Virus record (IMG/VR): IMGVR_UViG_3300029037_000169
DNA: 64,000 nucleotides
Origin: a virus
Direction: 5' to 3' (one strand)
In this document: one piece after another, positions 2,969 to 61,315 of the stretch
Position numbering within the stretch: the stretch's first letter is position 1
How the letters are laid out: every line of letters begins with the position of its first letter
Program-made: the position numbers and the translations under genes
The notes under the pieces: model-generated
The model's database searches: none
The model's input: only the letters and a program-made list of their open reading frames with translations
Told to the model about the DNA's origin: nothing

Positions 2969-3010
2969 ATAATAATAAAAGCTGAGCTACCGGCGTGACG
3001 GGCAATTAAT

Positions 3011-3256
3011 ATGACATTAGAACAAATTAACGCTATCAACCTTGAGGTTGAAAAAGTCTATAATATTATTAACAACACTGCTAGTAATTGTGGTCTTGAA
3101 TTAAATGACCTTGCTTTTCCTGAGCATGACGGCGTAGAGGATGATGTCGCTATAGGCGACATGATGACTCTAAGGGTTAACTTAAACGGGCTGAGGCATG
3201 CTTGCAAAATTATGGCAGAAAAGATAACCTATGCAATTGGAGATTACGAAGAATAA
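3011..3256 (+). CDS. hypothetical protein
   Basis: ORF only. Confidence 0.3.
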   Translation: MTLEQINAINLEVEKVYNIINNTASNCGLELNDLAFPEHDGVEDDVAIGDMMTLRVNLNGLRHACKIMAEKITYAIGDYEE

Positions 3257-5817: not shown

Positions 5818-5891
5818 GGCCCTTTAGCTCAGCGGAACAGAGCGACGGTTTCCTAAACCGCAGGTCCCGGGTTTGAGTCCCGGAAGGGCCA
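5818..5891 (+). tRNA. tRNA-Arg (anticodon CCT), phage-encoded
   Basis: Cloverleaf: acceptor GGCCCTT/AAGGGCC, D arm GCTC..GAGC, anticodon loop TTCCTAA, T arm CCGGG-TTTGAGT-CCCGG. Confidence 0.75.
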
Positions 5892-6288
5892 CTAAAAAAG
5901 AGTTCTTTGACTTATTGAATAAAATCCTTACCCCCATAAGAGGATATACGTAAGAGATATAGGTATGGTGGTAAGGTTATGATAGTCGAAGATACCGGAA
6001 GGGATGATGATCCCCGCTCCCGATGTAGTTTGATCGGTTCCGATGTTGGAGTCTACATATTTAATAATGTATAACAGTACGATCCCATTCGGGTATCCTT
6101 GCGGTGGATGGAGAAGAAGACCGTATCGTACTAAATAATACGACTTTTCCTACGAGTCGTATCTAAGATATAGTAGGAGGTTAATACGGCCAAAAGTATG
6201 ACAGATTGGACAGACAATCATAAGATGACGACAGATCGGAAAGACGATCAAGCCGAGAACTCCGGCTTTGCATGAGTTGATTAAGACT

Positions 6289-8036: not shown

Positions 8037-8111
8037 GCTCCCTTAGCTCAGTTGGTCGAGAGCATCCGGCTCATAACCGGGAGGTCGCTGGTTCAAGCCC
8101 GGCAGGGAGCA
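8037..8111 (+). tRNA. tRNA-Met (anticodon CAT; could be tRNA-Ile2 if lysidinylated), phage-encoded
   Basis: Acceptor GCTCCCT/AGGGAGC, D arm GCTCAGTTGGTCGAGAGC, anticodon loop CTCATAA, T arm GCTGG-TTCAAGC-CCGGC. Confidence 0.75.
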
Positions 8112-8180
8112 CGTTTCACCCCTAGAGGGTGCTTATTCATCTATTTTTAAGTCACAAATAGTTTTAGACATTGCAACGCA

Positions 8181-13784: not shown

Positions 13785-13861
13785 GGTATCGTGGGTCTAA
13801 TGGTAAGACCACTCCGCCAAAAGACGGAGAGATGCAGATTCGAATCCTGCCGATACCACCA
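13785..13861 (+). tRNA. tRNA-like gene with encoded CCA and non-canonical 8-nt anticodon loop lacking U33
   Basis: Perfect 7-bp acceptor GGTATCG/CGATACC+A+CCA, D arm GGTC-TAATGGTAA-GACC, T loop TTCGAAT, but anticodon stem CTCCG/CGGAG encloses CCAAAAGA. Confidence 0.55.
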
Positions 13862-29734: not shown

Positions 29735-30129
29735 CCAGCTATAACGTCCGACATTTCGGCCTCCCTACCGTTCTCGACCCGACTCATACCAGCGACAATA
29801 CGGATCATCTGCTCACGATCGTTGATATTTACAGGATCGTCAGCCGGTATCCCGGCGTAATCGGACACGGCCTTAATGTAAGCGTCCGTATCGTTCTCGT
29901 TTTCCGGTGCCCAGCGACCGATCATCTTGCGGATCGTGTCCAAATTATAGTTGTTATAGTAGTTACGCAAGATCCGGAATATGGCACGGTAGCCATACGC
30001 CATCGTCTCAAACTGTTTGAACGACTTGTCCTTGCTCGGACGTATCTCACCTTGGAACAAGTCTCCGTTGATCCGGATGTTTCCCGGGTTGTTGTTCCGA
30101 TACCCACGAGGTAAATTATTTTTCCCCAT
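29719..30129 (-). CDS. putative endolysin / cell-wall hydrolase (family not recognised)
   Basis: Sits between holin-like and spanin-like genes with overlaps; RGYRNNNPGNIR motif. Confidence 0.35.
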   Translation of the reverse strand: MGKNNLPRGYRNNNPGNIRINGDLFQGEIRPSKDKSFKQFETMAYGYRAIFRILRNYYNNYNLDTIRKMIGRWAPENENDTDAYIKAVSDYAGIPADDPVNINDREQMIRIVAGMSRVENGREAEMSDVIAGWNLL

Positions 30130-30634: not shown

Positions 30635-31027
30635 TTATAAAACCACTATGCTCTCCTCCTCTCTCGCCGCCTCCCACTCGGCGAAATCGCTATCCACACG
30701 GTCTTTCAACGCCTTCCTCTCGTTAAGGAACGTCTTATAAGACTCCACGTATGACAAGTCCAATATGCCTAGCTGGGCGGCGTTGTAGTCGTTCAGCTTC
30801 TTTTGCTCCACGTCCTTGTCCCATAGGGCGTTGATACAGGCCTCCAATATCTTGTTGGCAGTTAACGTGGCCCATATCCTGACCTCGTTGTAACTATAGG
30901 AGATCACGGGGGCCATATCGTCACCCATCTCCCTTGTCTCCTCTCTAACGTCCCACCGGTACAGGTAGGAACCGTCACCGTCCCGCTCTATTTTAGGCGG
31001 CATTGTGTCGCTCCATGATCGCTTCAT
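30635..31027 (-). CDS. hypothetical protein downstream of RT
   Basis: ORF overlapping RT start. Confidence 0.4.
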   Translation of the reverse strand: MKRSWSDTMPPKIERDGDGSYLYRWDVREETREMGDDMAPVISYSYNEVRIWATLTANKILEACINALWDKDVEQKKLNDYNAAQLGILDLSYVESYKTFLNERKALKDRVDSDFAEWEAAREEESIVVL

Positions 31028-32054
31028 AAAACTCTGGTTTTAAAATTTTCTTAGCTAAATGCTTGCTATCGCTATCATATATCCAGCCCAGCCAACCGGC
31101 TAGACCTGCCTTGTATTCCGTTAAGGATATATTCGGGACTTTATTCAATCTAGCCGCCGCACGACATAGATTTTGCTTAGTCCTCTTCCTTATCCGTATA
31201 TGCTCCTTATAGAAAACGAACCCCACGAAATCTATACCACGGCCGCTTTTATCCGATCTTCTCTCAGCGATCTTAAATATCTGGTAATTCCCTTTCAGCT
31301 CCAACTTCAACACGGTCAACCTATCGATAAGCCACGGAAGCAATACGTTTCTCAAGAAACACTTATCATGATGGAAAAAAGTCATGTCATCCGCATATCT
31401 GATATAATGCTTTATATCTATAATCTCCTTTATCTCGTGATCCAGATAGGCGAGATAAAGATTCGCAAGATATTGGCTAAGATAATTCCCGATCGGAACG
31501 CCGGGAGCGGAATCGATGATCTCATCCAACAACATAAGCAAGCGATCGTCCTTGATCTTCTTCCGAGCTATGCCTTTCAACACTTCATGGTCTATTGACG
31601 GATAGAATTTGCGGATATCAACCTTGAGGCAATAGGCGGATTCACGATCGGACAAAGCCCGTCTTGTCCTTTTATACGCCTCCGTTATCCCTCTTCCCTT
31701 GATACATGATGTCGTGTCAGAAGTGAATATGGAAACCCATATAGGTTCCATGACGTTCATTATAGCATGATGCAATATCCTGTCCGGGTAATAAGGAAGC
31801 TTGAATATGACCCTTTCTTTAGGCTCATAGATGATATCAGTCCGGTACTTGGAAGTCTTGAACGTGCCATCCTGCAAAGACTTTAGCAAACGGCTGAGAT
31901 TACCTTCTTTGTCCTTGTCAAACAACCTTATGCCGTAGGAATCCTTCTTCCCCCTCCGAGCCTTGATGTCTGCCAGTATCAAGTTATCCATATTCGCTAT
32001 CTTATCAAATAAATTTCCTATTCTCTTCATTGTCATCAATTTGCTTTTTATCAT
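30993..32054 (-). CDS. diversity-generating retroelement (DGR) reverse transcriptase
   Basis: YADD catalytic box (IRYADDMTFF); DGR-specific IGNYLSQ in place of QGxxxSP; ~350 aa; adjacent TR. Confidence 0.85.
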   Translation of the reverse strand: MIKSKLMTMKRIGNLFDKIANMDNLILADIKARRGKKDSYGIRLFDKDKEGNLSRLLKSLQDGTFKTSKYRTDIIYEPKERVIFKLPYYPDRILHHAIMNVMEPIWVSIFTSDTTSCIKGRGITEAYKRTRRALSDRESAYCLKVDIRKFYPSIDHEVLKGIARKKIKDDRLLMLLDEIIDSAPGVPIGNYLSQYLANLYLAYLDHEIKEIIDIKHYIRYADDMTFFHHDKCFLRNVLLPWLIDRLTVLKLELKGNYQIFKIAERRSDKSGRGIDFVGFVFYKEHIRIRKRTKQNLCRAAARLNKVPNISLTEYKAGLAGWLGWIYDSDSKHLAKKILKPEFYEAIMERHNAA

Positions 32055-32161
32055 AGGGAGTCTTCGGTTCCCCTACCAACACCCTTTATATGGGGAGACT
32101 TTTTTCGCCAAGAGGCGAGGCCACCATCCCTGTTTGTTCCCTAAATATCTTTCCCCTTTCT

Positions 32162-32278
32162 TAAAAGTATAGGCGTGAACCGATGTTACGATTCGCATCG
32201 GAAGGCGCATTATTCGTATTCACGTTAGCGAGGCCTGCATTCGACCTGTTGTCCGCGTTACCGCCAACCAGCACCACC
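32162..32278 (-). repeat. DGR template repeat (TR)
   Basis: 117-bp homology to VR 32727..32843; every mismatch (~18) is at a TR plus-strand T, i.e. an A on the coding minus strand. Confidence 0.85.
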
Positions 32279-32302
32279 TAGGGATGATCGACCCTTATTC
32301 CG

Positions 32303-32644
32303 TTATTCGAGATAATACCTGTTCCCGGAGGCTCGCATCGTCACTTTCCTCGGGAACTTGTCCATCTCCTTTATCTTTCCAAGCACGTACTTGATCTCTT
32401 GGGAATTCGTAAAGAATTTCTTGGCATCACTGTCCTTGTCCTCGATATTGTTCTTGATCATAACGAGTGCCCGGTCCTTCCCAAACTTGGTGGACACGCC
32501 GTCCATGTAATCAATGACCCAGAACGTGAGGTTCGTCAACTTCTGTTGGGTGATCTCCGGACAATTAAAATGCCTTGAGTTCTTATCCCTTGGGATGTTC
32601 AAGAATGACAAGCTGCCATCGTCTTTATTCTTATTTTCTTCCAT
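32303..32644 (-). CDS. DGR accessory variability determinant (Avd) candidate
   Basis: 113-aa ORF positioned between target gene and TR, the canonical avd slot. Confidence 0.45.
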   Translation of the reverse strand: MEENKNKDDGSLSFLNIPRDKNSRHFNCPEITQQKLTNLTFWVIDYMDGVSTKFGKDRALVMIKNNIEDKDSDAKKFFTNSQEIKYVLGKIKEMDKFPRKVTMRASGNRYYLE

Positions 32645-32697
32645 TTCATATTGTTATTTAATTGTTATACAAAATATTTCCGACGTGATACGTGCGG

Positions 32698-35600
32698 CTA
32701 CGCCGACGTTTTACGAAATTCGGGGAAAAAGCAAAGGCGCGAACCGAAGTGACGAAACGCAGCGGAAGGCGCATTATTCGTACCCACGTGAGCGAGGCCC
32801 GCAGCCGACCCGTCGTCCGCGCCACCGCCAACCAGCACCACCTGTAAGCGGTTGGCTTGCGTATAGGTGTAGTAATAGTCGCACCAGTAGGTAGAGCTAC
32901 TACCGCCGACCTCCGTAGCCACGATATCCCCATCTTCCCCAAGTAACATCTTCTTGGCATAACCATTGGTACGGCAGATGTTACCTTTCTTGTCATAACC
33001 TGTGTAAGATGTATCGCTGAAGTTTGACGGGTCATCGGTAGTCCATAGGATAGACAATCCGGAATCACCCGTGGTGACTTGTATGTTGGCCCCATCGGTG
33101 TATTTCCAGATATGGCCGAACGGGTTCTCTATGCCACGGTACCTGTTAGCCATCAACGTGGCGTGAGTACCACCGGAGGCGTTCTTCACGACATACGCCT
33201 TCTCTCCCGAGCCGTTCCCGAACTCGTTGGTATAGCCGCATGGGATAAGAGGATTGGCGTTGTTGAAGTTCGTCCAATCCGTCATTTGCGTCGGTCCCGG
33301 ACCTAGGCCGCCTTGGGCGAAACCGTTAGCGTCCTTCTGGGCGTTGAAAGGTTTCTGGCTGTCCAGCGTGGCGTACTCGACGGCGAATAACCAGAACAGG
33401 ATCTTGTGGGCGTTATAGGTGTACATTTCCCAGCCGCTGCCACGTTTCCTAGCGGCTTGCCGGAATTGGTCTCGGGTGAGGTTGGTGACGGGGCGGCCGA
33501 GTAGGGAACGGTAGGTATCATCCCATTCAGCGGTGTTGTCACCACCTCTAAAATTAGTTGAATTAGGATCACTTAATTTACTAGCTCCAGCCGCCGAACA
33601 TAATAAATTATCGGTTCTATACATTCTGGCTTCATATGTTGAGATATAGAACTTATCTACATGTTTATACCCAGGTAATGGAATTTCGGACAACATCTTC
33701 CTAAATTTAGTGCCATTAAAATACAATTTATACCAATGTTCAGGTATCTCTGTCATAACGGCATAATCCAAATAGCTTCCACCCCATGAAAGCTCATTAT
33801 CCAAATATTCTTTAACTCCACCATCTCTATCCAAAAGACACCTTCTCATCTTACTCTGCACCGGCAACTCCCGATGTAGTTGCATATTACCCACACGCTT
33901 CCCGTCCGGGCTTGACGATGCCATGTCCCACTCTACACCGTAGGCGTACCGCTCCTCTATATCCGGGATGTCCTCCCAAGCGGGGGTCCACTCGGTGGAG
34001 ATGTCACCATATTCAAGTTTAATCTTATGGATGGTGGAAGTTGATGTGCCAGTTTTAGGAGAACTAAATACAACCATATGTGTATTATCAGCTACTGCAT
34101 CTCCGATATTAGTAATCCATTTAAAAGTCTTACTGGCCTTCCCATTCACAAAGTCAGCCTTACTGAACTGAGCCATAGAACCTACTGCACCAGTAGAGTT
34201 ATATATAGTGAACATTTCCTTATCATCACCCAATTCTCCAAAAATAGTCAATGTTACTTGTGTTCCTTTAGATATCGGTTCAGTTAGCCAATAATCAGCG
34301 ATATTGTAATTCGAGTTACTCACCTCCTTCCCTGATCCCAGCAACAGGTTCCTGCCGTACACGGGCAGCTTGCGGTACTTGCCATCAGCCATCAGAGACT
34401 TATCCTTGTCCCCCTTGGTCTCCAGCGTTATCGACACGTCCGGATCTTCGTTTTGGGCCTTGTCCGGCGTTATGGTTATCTGGCCGTTAGACGGGGTGGA
34501 TGTGACAACGGGCTTTAACTTATTAACGTCCGTCCTTAGACCGGTGACCAGATTCCGGATATCCGTATCGTCGTAATTATCCAATCCATCCAACTTACCC
34601 TTATCTTCGTCAGTATAATTATTGTCCGTATGGACGTAATTAGCGTCCTTTACGATGTGATCGTCATTTGTTAATTGGGATGTCTTGGTTGGGATCAAAG
34701 CCGTTATCTCCGCACGCAAGTCATTGAGAAGACCGGTTAGGGTTTCCTTATCAGTAATACCCTGCAAAAAAAGCTCGATCTCATGGAAGGTATCTATAGC
34801 GTCGCTCGCTCCATCACCCAATAACGTGTCGATATCCGCCTTGATAGAGGCGATCTCACTCCTGACCCATTCATCATCATAGTTGGATAAGCCGTTGATC
34901 TTAGATAACAGCTCATCCGTAAGGTCGTTTGTGCTAAGTCCCTTCCCTTTGATCTTCTCGACAAACCTATCGTCAATCTGTCCGGACGTGTAATAACCTG
35001 ACAAGATACTCGTGACCTCCGCAAGTATTTGTTTTTTCAAATCCAGCAACACTCCGGCCATATCCTTATCCTCTGTCATACCGGACAAGAACTCCACCAC
35101 CTCCTGCCATCTGTTGATGATATTGTCCGCGTCCGGATCTCCCGTTATAAACGTGGACAGATCGGAAGCAACTTTCCTTATGGCCGTGTCAAGATCCCCC
35201 TCTACCTCCTTCGCCCTGCTGATCTCGGAGGTTAAAGCCTCTCTTAACGCCGTGTCATCGTAATTACTCAATCCGTCGAGCTTTTTCAAAAGAGCGTCCG
35301 TCAAGTTGTTATCCGTATGCGTGTAATCGGCATCGGTTACGATATTATCCGGGAGAATGGGTATCCCTAACTCCTCTAGGGACTTATCCCCGACCAACTC
35401 AACCCCGTTGATCCGTGGTTTATTGGTCATACTTTCATAATCTCCGGTCCCTACGGCAGGAACGGAGATATCTCCCGTTAGCCTTACCGTTGTCACCTTG
35501 ACGCTGCCACATCCCGTATCTCCACCTACGGAGCACGACCGTGGGATAAGACGGAACGCATCGCAAGCGTCTACGGTGTACATGCCCTCCTTCCCTTTGT

Positions 35601-35823
35601 TCTCGATAAGAGTCAGCGTATAGACACCGTTATAATCTTGGTCTTTGCCTAGGTAGGTGAATCGTATCACGTTATCCCGGAAGTGGAGGTCTTTTACCTC
35701 CATCTTCCTGTAACCATTGGTCATGAAGACGCTAATGTTCTTGCCATCCAAAGACTCGGGCTTACCGTCCCGGAAGATGGTCCATTCTATATTGATGTCG
35801 TTTCCTATGCGAATAGCTTCCAT
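32698..35823 (-). CDS. DGR target: tail fibre / receptor-binding protein with C-terminal variable region
   Basis: 1041 aa, fibre-like, VR at C-terminus, sits in tail-fibre cluster. Confidence 0.75.
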   Translation of the reverse strand: MEAIRIGNDINIEWTIFRDGKPESLDGKNISVFMTNGYRKMEVKDLHFRDNVIRFTYLGKDQDYNGVYTLTLIENKGKEGMYTVDACDAFRLIPRSCSVGGDTGCGSVKVTTVRLTGDISVPAVGTGDYESMTNKPRINGVELVGDKSLEELGIPILPDNIVTDADYTHTDNNLTDALLKKLDGLSNYDDTALREALTSEISRAKEVEGDLDTAIRKVASDLSTFITGDPDADNIINRWQEVVEFLSGMTEDKDMAGVLLDLKKQILAEVTSILSGYYTSGQIDDRFVEKIKGKGLSTNDLTDELLSKINGLSNYDDEWVRSEIASIKADIDTLLGDGASDAIDTFHEIELFLQGITDKETLTGLLNDLRAEITALIPTKTSQLTNDDHIVKDANYVHTDNNYTDEDKGKLDGLDNYDDTDIRNLVTGLRTDVNKLKPVVTSTPSNGQITITPDKAQNEDPDVSITLETKGDKDKSLMADGKYRKLPVYGRNLLLGSGKEVSNSNYNIADYWLTEPISKGTQVTLTIFGELGDDKEMFTIYNSTGAVGSMAQFSKADFVNGKASKTFKWITNIGDAVADNTHMVVFSSPKTGTSTSTIHKIKLEYGDISTEWTPAWEDIPDIEERYAYGVEWDMASSSPDGKRVGNMQLHRELPVQSKMRRCLLDRDGGVKEYLDNELSWGGSYLDYAVMTEIPEHWYKLYFNGTKFRKMLSEIPLPGYKHVDKFYISTYEARMYRTDNLLCSAAGASKLSDPNSTNFRGGDNTAEWDDTYRSLLGRPVTNLTRDQFRQAARKRGSGWEMYTYNAHKILFWLFAVEYATLDSQKPFNAQKDANGFAQGGLGPGPTQMTDWTNFNNANPLIPCGYTNEFGNGSGEKAYVVKNASGGTHATLMANRYRGIENPFGHIWKYTDGANIQVTTGDSGLSILWTTDDPSNFSDTSYTGYDKKGNICRTNGYAKKMLLGEDGDIVATEVGGSSSTYWCDYYYTYTQANRLQVVLVGGGADDGSAAGLAHVGTNNAPSAAFRHFGSRLCFFPEFRKTSA
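32727..32843 (-). repeat. DGR variable repeat (VR) at 3' end of target gene
   Basis: See TR; lies within last ~48 codons of 32698..35823. Confidence 0.85.
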
Positions 35824-60676: not shown

Positions 60677-60918
60677 ATTTTCGTAACTTTAAGTTACGCA
60701 CCTGTCCCGCAAATATAATGAATAATATACATGACGGCTACACTGTATCCATAAAATATGTTATTGATCATAATTGGGAGTTGAGAAGGAAAAACGTTAT
60801 ATTTGTCACGATGGAGAATTAAGACATCAAAAATCCTATAAAAAAACGCCTTTTACGTGTATTTTTACGTGTAACAACAAAAATAGCCTTGACAATCAGT
60901 AAATTACCAAGGCTATTG

Positions 60919-60933
60919 TGGAGATGGAGAGAT
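60919..60933. repeat. right prophage junction (att core) = 3' terminal 15 nt of ssrA
   Basis: Identical to 865..879. Confidence 0.65.
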
Positions 60934-61315
60934 TCGAACTCTCGTCCAAACGAGGAATTAATTTGCTTTCTACATGTTTATCTTCGCCTTCATTGTCGGG
61001 GAAGAGCAAGACCGAAGCCACCCACTCATCCCTTATCCTCTAAAGTTTCGCCTGAGACCCGAGGCTTATCTCAAACTATCTCCGATATTGCTGCACCACC
61101 TGATCGGAACGCTTCGGAGCCACAGCATCCGGGTGATGTCACGTCCCCGCAACTTTTGCAGGGATTAAGCTTGAATCTACTATACTTCGATTAAGCAGCG
61201 AGAGCGTAATTATTTTCGCCAGTTAATTGTTCGTTGTCTGAGATTTAAGTGCAAGCCAACCACGCACTACATGCTTACAAACCACTTCTACCCGCTGTCA
61301 AAACCGGTCATCCCC
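60919..61315 (-). ncRNA. ssrA: tmRNA (ssrA) with tag peptide GENNYALAA
   Basis: 5' GGGGATGACCGGTTTTGACAGCGGG; tag ORF GGCGAAAATAATTACGCTCTCGCTGCTTAA (61191..61220, minus); 3' tRNA-like GAGAGTTCGAATCTCTCCATCTCCA. Confidence 0.85.

Follow-up and report, generated by a model that had tools for sequence, protein, structure and literature searches.

Organization of the locus

The 64,000-nucleotide virus sequence IMGVR_UViG_3300029037_000169 from IMG/VR (the window, by which we mean this whole stretch) carries on its minus strand a compact cassette arranged as a diversity-generating retroelement (DGR). Read in the coding direction, a target gene for a protein of 1041 amino acids is followed after a gap of 53 nt by a small open reading frame of 113 codons (ORF113), after a further 23 nt by a template repeat (TR), then by a spacer of 108 nt, by the gene for a reverse transcriptase (RT) and finally by ORF130 (Table 1). 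The TR is non-coding and lies within the 248-nt gap that separates ORF113 from the RT, and its counterpart, the variable repeat (VR), is found close to the target gene's 3' end. The cassette combines a DGR-type RT, a TR and VR that differ at adenines, a VR at the target's 3' end with the TR beside the RT, and hypervariability of the VR across the lineage.

Table 1. Features of the DGR cassette and of the surrounding prophage (window coordinates)
Feature	Coordinates	Strand	Basis or remarks
Target gene, 1041 aa	32698-35823	-	phrog_5302 'tail protein'; nr DAR34576.1
VR	32727-32843	-	18/18 mismatches to TR at TR adenines; codons 994-1033 of 1041
Putative initiation of mutagenic homing (IMH) site, VR 3' end, 13 nt, CGCCTTTGCTTTT	32727-32739	-	Positions 109 and 111 fixed in 27 VRs
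Possible hairpin 3' of VR, core ACGTCGGC-GTA-GCCGCACGT at 32690-32709	32680-32723	-	Over target stop codon; weak
ORF113, candidate non-Avd accessory, 113 aa, 13.3 kDa, isoelectric point (pI) 9.2	32303-32644	-	phrog_19665; between target and TR
TR	32163-32279	-	Non-coding; 28 adenines; 9 AAY codons in VR frame
Putative IMH* site, TR 3' end, 13 nt, CGCCTATACTTTT	32163-32175	-	Same population data as for IMH
Spacer RNA, Rfam RT-17 (RF03020)	32037-32122	-	41.7 bits against gathering score of 40.4; E 8e-7; full-length
DGR reverse transcriptase, 353 aa	30993-32054	-	RVT_1, phrog_1423, IGNYLSQ, YADD
ORF130, acidic 130-aa protein, pI 4.6	30635-31027	-	phrog_11557; 35-nt overlap with RT 3' end
Integrase	982-2319	+
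Tape measure gene, 1377 aa	44422-48555
Transfer-messenger RNA (tmRNA) gene	60918-61315	-	Tag GENNYALAA
15-bp direct repeat GTGGAGATGGAGAGA	865-879 and 60918-60932		Second copy at tmRNA gene 3' end

An adenine-specific template and variable repeat pair

The TR and VR form an ungapped direct repeat of 117 nt that is 85% identical at an offset of 564 nt, the only long one between positions 30000 and 37000, and no third copy is present anywhere in the window. Compared on the minus (coding) strand, the copies show exactly 18 differences, all 18 at positions that are adenines in the TR, an outcome expected by chance with a hypergeometric p of 2e-14. Ten of the 18 altered adenines, out of 28 in the TR, are replaced by G, four by C and four by T. 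The VR corresponds to nucleotides 2981-3097 of the target ORF, leaving only eight codons after it, and 15 of the 18 changes fall at codon positions 1 or 2. When the TR is read in the frame of the VR, nine of its 38 codons are AAY. With 24 variable adenines, the computed repertoire amounts to 4^24 = 2.8e14 DNA sequences, or about 3e13 peptides.

The protein encoded by the RT gene matches Pfam RVT_1 (3e-13) and phrog_1423 'reverse transcriptase' (5.6e-103), and contains IGNYLSQ at residues 188-194, a motif of the [ILV]GxxxSQ type, together with YADD at residue 220. Both motifs are kept in all 73 of the family RTs. The closest RTs among GenBank phages are those of crAss-like phages, at 45-55% identity over about 95% of the length, and a scan of genome contigs with the RT found only relatives that are 48-55% identical in other Bacteroidota, and not this prophage.

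A first-pass annotation, made from the letters of the sequence, had proposed a 117-bp TR/VR pair with about 18 mismatches confined to coding-strand adenines, a VR at the 3' end of a 1041-aa tail gene, and an RT bearing the DGR motif IGNYLSQ. All of these proposals agree with the alignment, the codon positions and the motif found here. Its coordinates for the VR were exact, whereas those for the TR (32162-32278) were one base too low. It had also named two observations that would speak against a DGR. The one, substitutions at non-adenine sites of the TR, occurs 0 times in 18 mismatches here, and 1270 of 1297 mismatches lie at TR adenines over 78 related cassettes; the other, an RT without RT motifs in a hidden Markov model search, is contradicted by the RVT_1 match and the YADD motif.

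Variation among related elements

Scanning IMG/VR with the ORF113 family yielded 80 loci, among which 29 close relatives of the present element allow template and target to be compared directly. Their TRs fall into only four variants separated by two differences or fewer, with 19 of the 29 identical to the present TR, whereas their VRs comprise 27 distinct sequences. Comparison of the VR across related prophages, a check suggested by the first-pass annotation, places the hypervariability at the positions of TR adenines: column entropy of the VR is 1.27 bits at the 28 TR-adenine positions and 0.03 bits at the other 89. Furthermore, in relatives with a TR that is 100% identical, DNA identity is only 88-95% immediately upstream of the VR, 92-97% for ORF113 and 96-98% for the RT. 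With 27 different VRs and variation limited to TR-adenine positions, the lineage is therefore active now or has been recently. A constant template beside a rewritten target is the pattern expected of a working DGR, and these comparisons show it for the lineage, not for this copy.

Putative limits of information transfer

Homology between TR and VR ends sharply past ...CTTTT on the coding-sense 3' side. Within the repeat, TR adenines A109 and A111 are replaced by T and G, respectively, in 27/27 distinct VRs. A change at repeat position 109, the third base of a Leu codon (CTN), would be synonymous, yet the site never varies, and therefore selection at the level of the protein is no explanation for its fixation. 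Position 103 is also synonymous (TCN, Ser) and is variable, with G, T and A all present among the VRs. We infer that information transfer stops somewhere between repeat positions 103 and 109, and the 13-nt segments at the 3' ends of the two repeats are listed in Table 1 as the putative IMH and IMH*. The contrast between IMH and IMH* had previously been sought in the sequences flanking the repeats; these do diverge on the 3' side, but the final 13 nt of the repeats are a better place for the boundary.

Two other adenines vary little. TR A32 (window 32811) is G in 27/27 distinct VRs, converting an AGG arginine codon to a GGG glycine codon, and selection for glycine can explain this fixed change. 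TR A43 (window 32800), a synonymous site within the mutagenised zone, is G in 26/27 VRs, a near-fixation that may reflect either a strong A-to-G bias or common ancestry.

The target protein

Residues 524-1035 of the target match phrog_5302 'tail protein' (6e-109), and an identical protein is deposited in nr as 'tail collar fiber protein'. The N-terminal ~615 amino acids are repeat-rich and fibre-like, and the C-terminal ~426 constitute a conserved variable-protein module that corresponds to the whole of the 440-aa target of most related cassettes, all of which end in ...GSRLCF. An 'SRLC' ending is described as the signature of CLec3/lineage 3 VRs by Morozova et al. (PMC7290462). The C-terminal domain also aligns with the C-terminus of the Hankyphage target (24% over 359 aa, E 2e-10), the alignment spanning the VR, and the Hankyphage protein is said by Benler et al. 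to carry a C-type lectin domain (PMC6199706). Homology to that protein and the 'SRLC' ending give indirect support for a C-type lectin fold of the variable domain. The target lies downstream of the tape measure gene, which precedes it. The description of the target as a prophage tail fibre is therefore supported by context and annotation rather than by structure, and its presumed role would be in receptor binding.

The N-terminal 615 amino acids contain internal repeats 687 nt apart (34560-34640 and 35250-35327) with the motif ...HTDNNxTD...KLDGLSNYDD.... Relatives in the same cluster exist in 715-aa and ~1040-aa versions that have the C-terminal domain in common, which suggests that fibre-shaft modules are swapped among them.

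The protein encoded between target and TR

ORF113 belongs to PHROG 19665, a family whose function is unassigned in PHROG; the mean pI of ORF113 homologues is 8.8. Homologues are 65-78% identical across hosts that include Leadbetterella, Tannerellaceae and Muribaculaceae as well as metagenome bins with the labels Clostridia and Acholeplasma, and 31 columns of the family alignment are invariant. At the same loci, conservation of ORF113 (67-74%) exceeds that of the RT (51-62%), the target domain (39-50%) and ORF130 (28-46%). ORF113 is located between target and TR in 78 of the 78 cassettes in which both it and the RT were detected, and the order target C-terminal domain, ORF113, TR, RT is found at every locus with sufficient flank.

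This is the usual place of avd, and the first-pass annotation had accordingly put a 113-aa ORF in the avd slot. An ORF of that size is indeed present between VR and TR, but we rejected the identification as Avd. No Pfam family matches ORF113, PF05635 (Avd) being absent at E <= 1, and an AlphaFold (AF2) model with a mean predicted local distance difference test score (pLDDT) of 86, rising above 90 over residues 30-113, consists of five strands and one long helix (strands 40-52, 55-64 and 75-79, helix 82-93, strands 99-106 and 109-112). The modelled order, b1-b2-b3-helix-b4-b5, would be that of an OB-fold and not of a four-helix bundle, so that ORF113 resembles Avd in position, size and basic charge only. 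Because a Foldseek search of the model against PDB gave no significant match, the assignment of ORF113 as a small, OB-like beta-barrel is tentative. Against BFVD, a collection of predicted viral proteins, the best three fold matches of the model are all RT-domain proteins, with E values from 1.4e-6 to 2.9e-4 and TMq of 0.63-0.66. The CH1 accessory was also rejected as an identity for ORF113, on published size and charge (113 aa and pI 9.2 against 160-169 aa and pI about 4.7).

A physical connection between ORF113 and RTs is found elsewhere. Searching GenBank phages with ORF113 by tblastn matched only Hankyphage-type genomes, and did so inside the annotated RT gene. In the 434-aa RT of Bacteroides phage p00, residues 1-322 align with the present RT at 31% identity and residues 324-420 align in frame with ORF113 at 37% identity (E 4e-14). 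A profile of ORF113 run against 1.84 billion representatives detected 198 members only, most of them about 100-130 aa long, indicating that ORF113 is not a general phage protein. Each of the six members that are 433-583 aa long has RVT_1 in front and the ORF113-like domain at the C-terminus. Given the strict synteny, the strong conservation and the repeated fusion, a functional partnership with the RT appears to be the most economical reading of ORF113.

Two other matches were noted. In one representative of 296 aa, a BPD_transp_2 permease segment is followed by a stretch resembling ORF113 at the C-terminus; this is probably a chimera of gene calling or assembly. Searches of ORF113 against Pfam, NCBIfam and PDB profiles matched a single family, and that far below threshold: residues 32-103 align with an internal region (~210-287) of the 'clustered lipoprotein' family of Treponema denticola (PF09710, E 9e-4; TIGR01781, E 1.8e-5). 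DGRs occur in Treponema as well.

A full-text search of the literature returned no ORF113-type module, OB-fold or new non-Avd protein described as a DGR component, a result that is not proof of absence and that leaves the 'PAG' candidates of Wu et al. outside the comparison. In Hankyphage, a different small ORF has been labelled Avd-like on size and charge only, both in PMC12135933 and by Benler et al. (PMC6199706).

The spacer RNA between TR and RT

The spacer separating TR from RT matches the Rfam motif RT-17 over its full length and above the gathering score, with RT-18 just under threshold. In 6/9 diverse cassettes RT-17 likewise passes its gathering score at this location between TR and RT, and the corresponding RNA of Hankyphage is RT-3 (146.6 bits). 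The first hairpin of the spacer, CGCC-UCUU-GGCG (32106-32117), is followed by a run of A. Among its four core pairs, UA is exchanged for CG in six sequences and GC for AU in two with 0 broken pairs, and RNAalifold recovered this hairpin and nothing more. In BPP-1, the motif RT-10 was placed between TR and RT by Weinberg et al., by whom a location in DGRs was only speculated for the other RT motifs (PMC5737381).

Relationship to characterized DGRs

The prototype DGR of BPP-1 (mtd-avd-TR-brt) shares with the present cassette a one-strand order of a target with a 3' VR, a small basic protein, a TR, a structured spacer RNA and an RT, as well as adenine-specific flow of information from TR to VR at the tip of a tail fibre. 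ORF113 is similar to the BPP-1 accessory protein in size and charge (13 kDa, pI 9.2); however, it is not Avd, its predicted beta-barrel contrasting with the four-helix bundle of Avd. The two systems also differ in the spacer motif (RT-17 here, RT-10 in BPP-1) and in VR class, which is CLec3-like ('GSRLCF') here and CLec1 in BPP-1, and the putative IMH of the present element is short and not G/C-rich.

Judged by sequence similarity, the element is distantly related to the DGR of Hankyphage (p00), which has been found experimentally to be active (PMC12135933). Three modules are homologous, namely the target C-terminal domain (24%), the RT (31%) and the ORF113 module (37%), and the two elements have in common a 117-nt TR/VR, the order VR, small ORF, TR, spacer RNA and RT, and a Bacteroidales host. 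In contrast, the ORF113-like module forms the C-terminal domain of the 434-aa RT in Hankyphage whereas it is a separate gene here, the Hankyphage spacer is RT-3 and its target exceeds 2000 aa, and Hankyphage is a Mu-like transposable phage while the present element resides in an integrase-bearing prophage that integrates at tmRNA.

The cassette also resembles DGRs of lineage 3/CLec3, including those of crAssphage LMMB, cr50_1 and cr115_1, a resemblance of similarity and motifs as distinct from RT phylogeny. Shared traits are the lack of avd, VRs ending in ...SRLC, RTs 45-55% identical to crAss-like RTs (45% to that of LMMB) and Bacteroidota hosts. Lineage 3 is described as lacking avd, with the acidic CH1 of 160-169 aa as its accessory, by Wu et al. 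2018 (PMC5758913), and the RT of crAssphage LMMB, whose cassette type TG-VR-TR-RT has no accessory gene, was put in this lineage by its authors (PMC7290462). The present family differs from the target-TR-RT arrangement reported for the lineage, either without an accessory or with CH1, in that a basic 113-aa protein always lies between target and TR.

A further link to the Crassvirales comes from the tail protein gp044 of cr50_1 (Cohcovirus), the last 424 amino acids of which are 90% identical to the target C-terminal domain. At the nucleotide level the match extends over 1237 nt at 89.8%, between window positions 32723-33959 and positions 94597-95830 of NC_055868.1. The VR-like stretch of gp044 differs from the present TR at 16 sites, 15 of which are TR adenines, and a cognate TR for this stretch is absent from all 98.8 kb of cr50_1, whose own DGR has a different TR/VR pair (98440-98505 and 98713-98778). 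The gp044 domain looks like a receptor-binding module that was already diversified, is now an orphan, and may have moved between a siphovirus-like prophage lineage and a crAss-like phage.

ORF130 is 59% identical to cr50_1 gp045, which in that genome directly follows the tail gene, so that the layout of cr50_1 appears as if ORF113, TR and RT had been inserted between the tail gene and the ORF130 homologue. A homologue of ORF130 was detected downstream of the RT at 77 of 81 RT-containing loci (tblastn, E <= 1e-5). ORF130 could serve in tail-fibre assembly or as a chaperone, and may not be a component of the DGR at all.

Prophage and host

The element lies in a prophage of about 60 kb that is inserted in the tmRNA gene of Parabacteroides distasonis and is bounded by a 15-bp direct repeat. 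Genes identified within the window include an integrase, replication genes, an anti-repressor, a holin and an endolysin, together with tail genes including that for the tape measure protein, and genes for the major head protein, the portal and the large and small terminase subunits. A prophage context had been put forward in the first-pass annotation, and the integrase, terminase, portal, capsid and tape measure genes along with the att repeat support it. Exact sequence matches to the flanking sigma factor, the integrase and ORF113 are found in P. distasonis genomes, and nr already lists the RT, ORF113 and the target, as third-party annotations, under an uncultured 'Caudoviricetes sp.'. The idea that the window is itself a crAss-like phage was rejected on account of the integrase, the att repeats, the tape measure gene and integration at tmRNA.

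ARAGORN reported three tRNA-like genes in the prophage, at 13785-13861(+), 5818-5892 and 8037-8112: a tRNA-Arg(CCT), a tRNA-Met(CAT) and one with a four-base anticodon (aaaa). The last of these may represent a frameshift-suppressor-like tRNA, or the call may be false.

Interpretation and alternatives

We consider it highly probable that the cassette is a functional-looking DGR of the Avd-less, CLec3-type lineage of Bacteroidota phages, carried by a tmRNA-integrated P. distasonis prophage and having ORF113 in the place of Avd. In the biochemistry that we infer for every step of its action, an RNA covering the TR and the RT-17 spacer would be produced, and the RT would copy the TR into complementary DNA (cDNA), misincorporating opposite template adenines. 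The cDNA would then replace the VR, with the short IMH at the VR end setting the 3' boundary, and up to 24 positions would be rewritten in the last 40 residues of the tip of what is presumably a receptor-binding tail protein. ORF113 would serve as the partner of the RT where other DGRs use Avd, and would probably bind the spacer RNA and/or the nascent single-stranded cDNA.

The repeat pair could conceivably be an ordinary duplication or gene-conversion tract lying beside an unrelated retron, group II intron or defence RT, in keeping with NCBIfam, in which the RT obtains only sub-threshold matches to group II introns, retrons and defence-associated reverse transcriptases (DRT). However, the mismatch spectrum, with its adenine specificity here and across the family, has already refuted this explanation, and with the [ILV]GxxxSQ motif in the RT and nearest characterized relatives that are the DGR RTs of crAss-like phages and Hankyphage we give it next to no credence. 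A stronger contender, although one that we still judge very unlikely, is that this copy has decayed or fallen silent and that the differences between TR and VR record ancestral activity. The window holds no measure of current activity, and the fixation of A32, A109 and A111 in all VRs and near-fixation of A43 indicate that part of the TR/VR difference was inherited and is not recent. Nevertheless, the RT with its catalytic YADD, ORF113 and the target ORF are all intact, the present TR is the commonest of its lineage, and relatives that are 96-98% identical in the RT each have a different VR, from which it follows that the VR turns over faster than ordinary divergence would allow.

Whether ORF113 belongs to the retroelement is the point on which an alternative carries most weight. 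It may be a passenger, for example a small single-stranded-DNA-binding (SSB)-like or structural phage protein, with the RT working alone as has been proposed for lineage 3, which is described without accessory genes (PMC5758913) and includes LMMB-type cassettes composed of TG-VR-TR-RT (PMC7290462). Such a reading would fit the failure to detect an ORF113 homologue in crAss-like phages, and ORF130 is equally syntenic without having an evident role in the DGR. Nonetheless we regard it as rather unlikely, as the position in the cassette is invariant from Leadbetterella to Parabacteroides hosts, ORF113 is more conserved than the RT, ORF113 has repeatedly been fused to RT C-termini and matches RT-domain proteins in fold, and the family is far too rare among the 1.84 billion representatives for a general phage protein.

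Several results count against the reading of the cassette as a working DGR that employs ORF113. No homologue of ORF113 was detected in crAss-like phages, whose RTs are the closest in the phage collection, and therefore ORF113 cannot be a universal requirement of this RT clade. Profile searches (Pfam, NCBIfam and PDB) with the target and its family gave no match, and an AlphaFold model of the target C-terminal 426 amino acids, built from a 53-sequence alignment, has a pLDDT of 45, falling to 25-31 over the VR, too low to confirm a C-type lectin fold for the variable domain. The hairpin predicted 17 nt past the VR has a z-score of only -0.6 and shows no conservation across the cassette family. 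In the spacer, clean covariation is confined to the first hairpin, since a second, hand-drawn stem has only 57% of cells paired on a MAFFT alignment and is unsupported. Lastly, the first-pass annotation had called the element apparently active, which is shown for the lineage (27 VRs in 29 elements) and not for this individual copy.

Implications

As a DGR, the element is one more well-documented example of a common class, in this case in a prophage of P. distasonis; one survey found tail-targeting DGRs in 43% of the inducible prophage species of gut Bacteroidota (PMC12629997). The less ordinary features are the candidate non-Avd cofactor ORF113, the placement of RT-17 in a DGR, and the receptor-binding domain shared with a Crassvirales phage. 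The last of these, an apparent transfer of a module between phage orders, bears on the exchange of host-range modules among gut phages. RT-17, until now an orphan Rfam motif, is here seen in the TR-RT spacer of a DGR, a location that was previously a matter of speculation for motifs other than RT-10.

More broadly, the ORF113 family may represent an unrecognized DGR cofactor, a proposal for which we consider the case evenly balanced. It would occur as a separate gene in hundreds of prophage cassettes of Bacteroidota and as a C-terminal extension of the RT in Hankyphage-type elements, and would replace Avd, working with RT-17 or RT-3 spacer RNAs in template-primed, adenine-mutagenic cDNA synthesis. 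If this is true, 'Avd-less' DGRs would not be accessory-free, and ORF113 would be a second, structurally unrelated answer to the problem of providing the RT with a cofactor.

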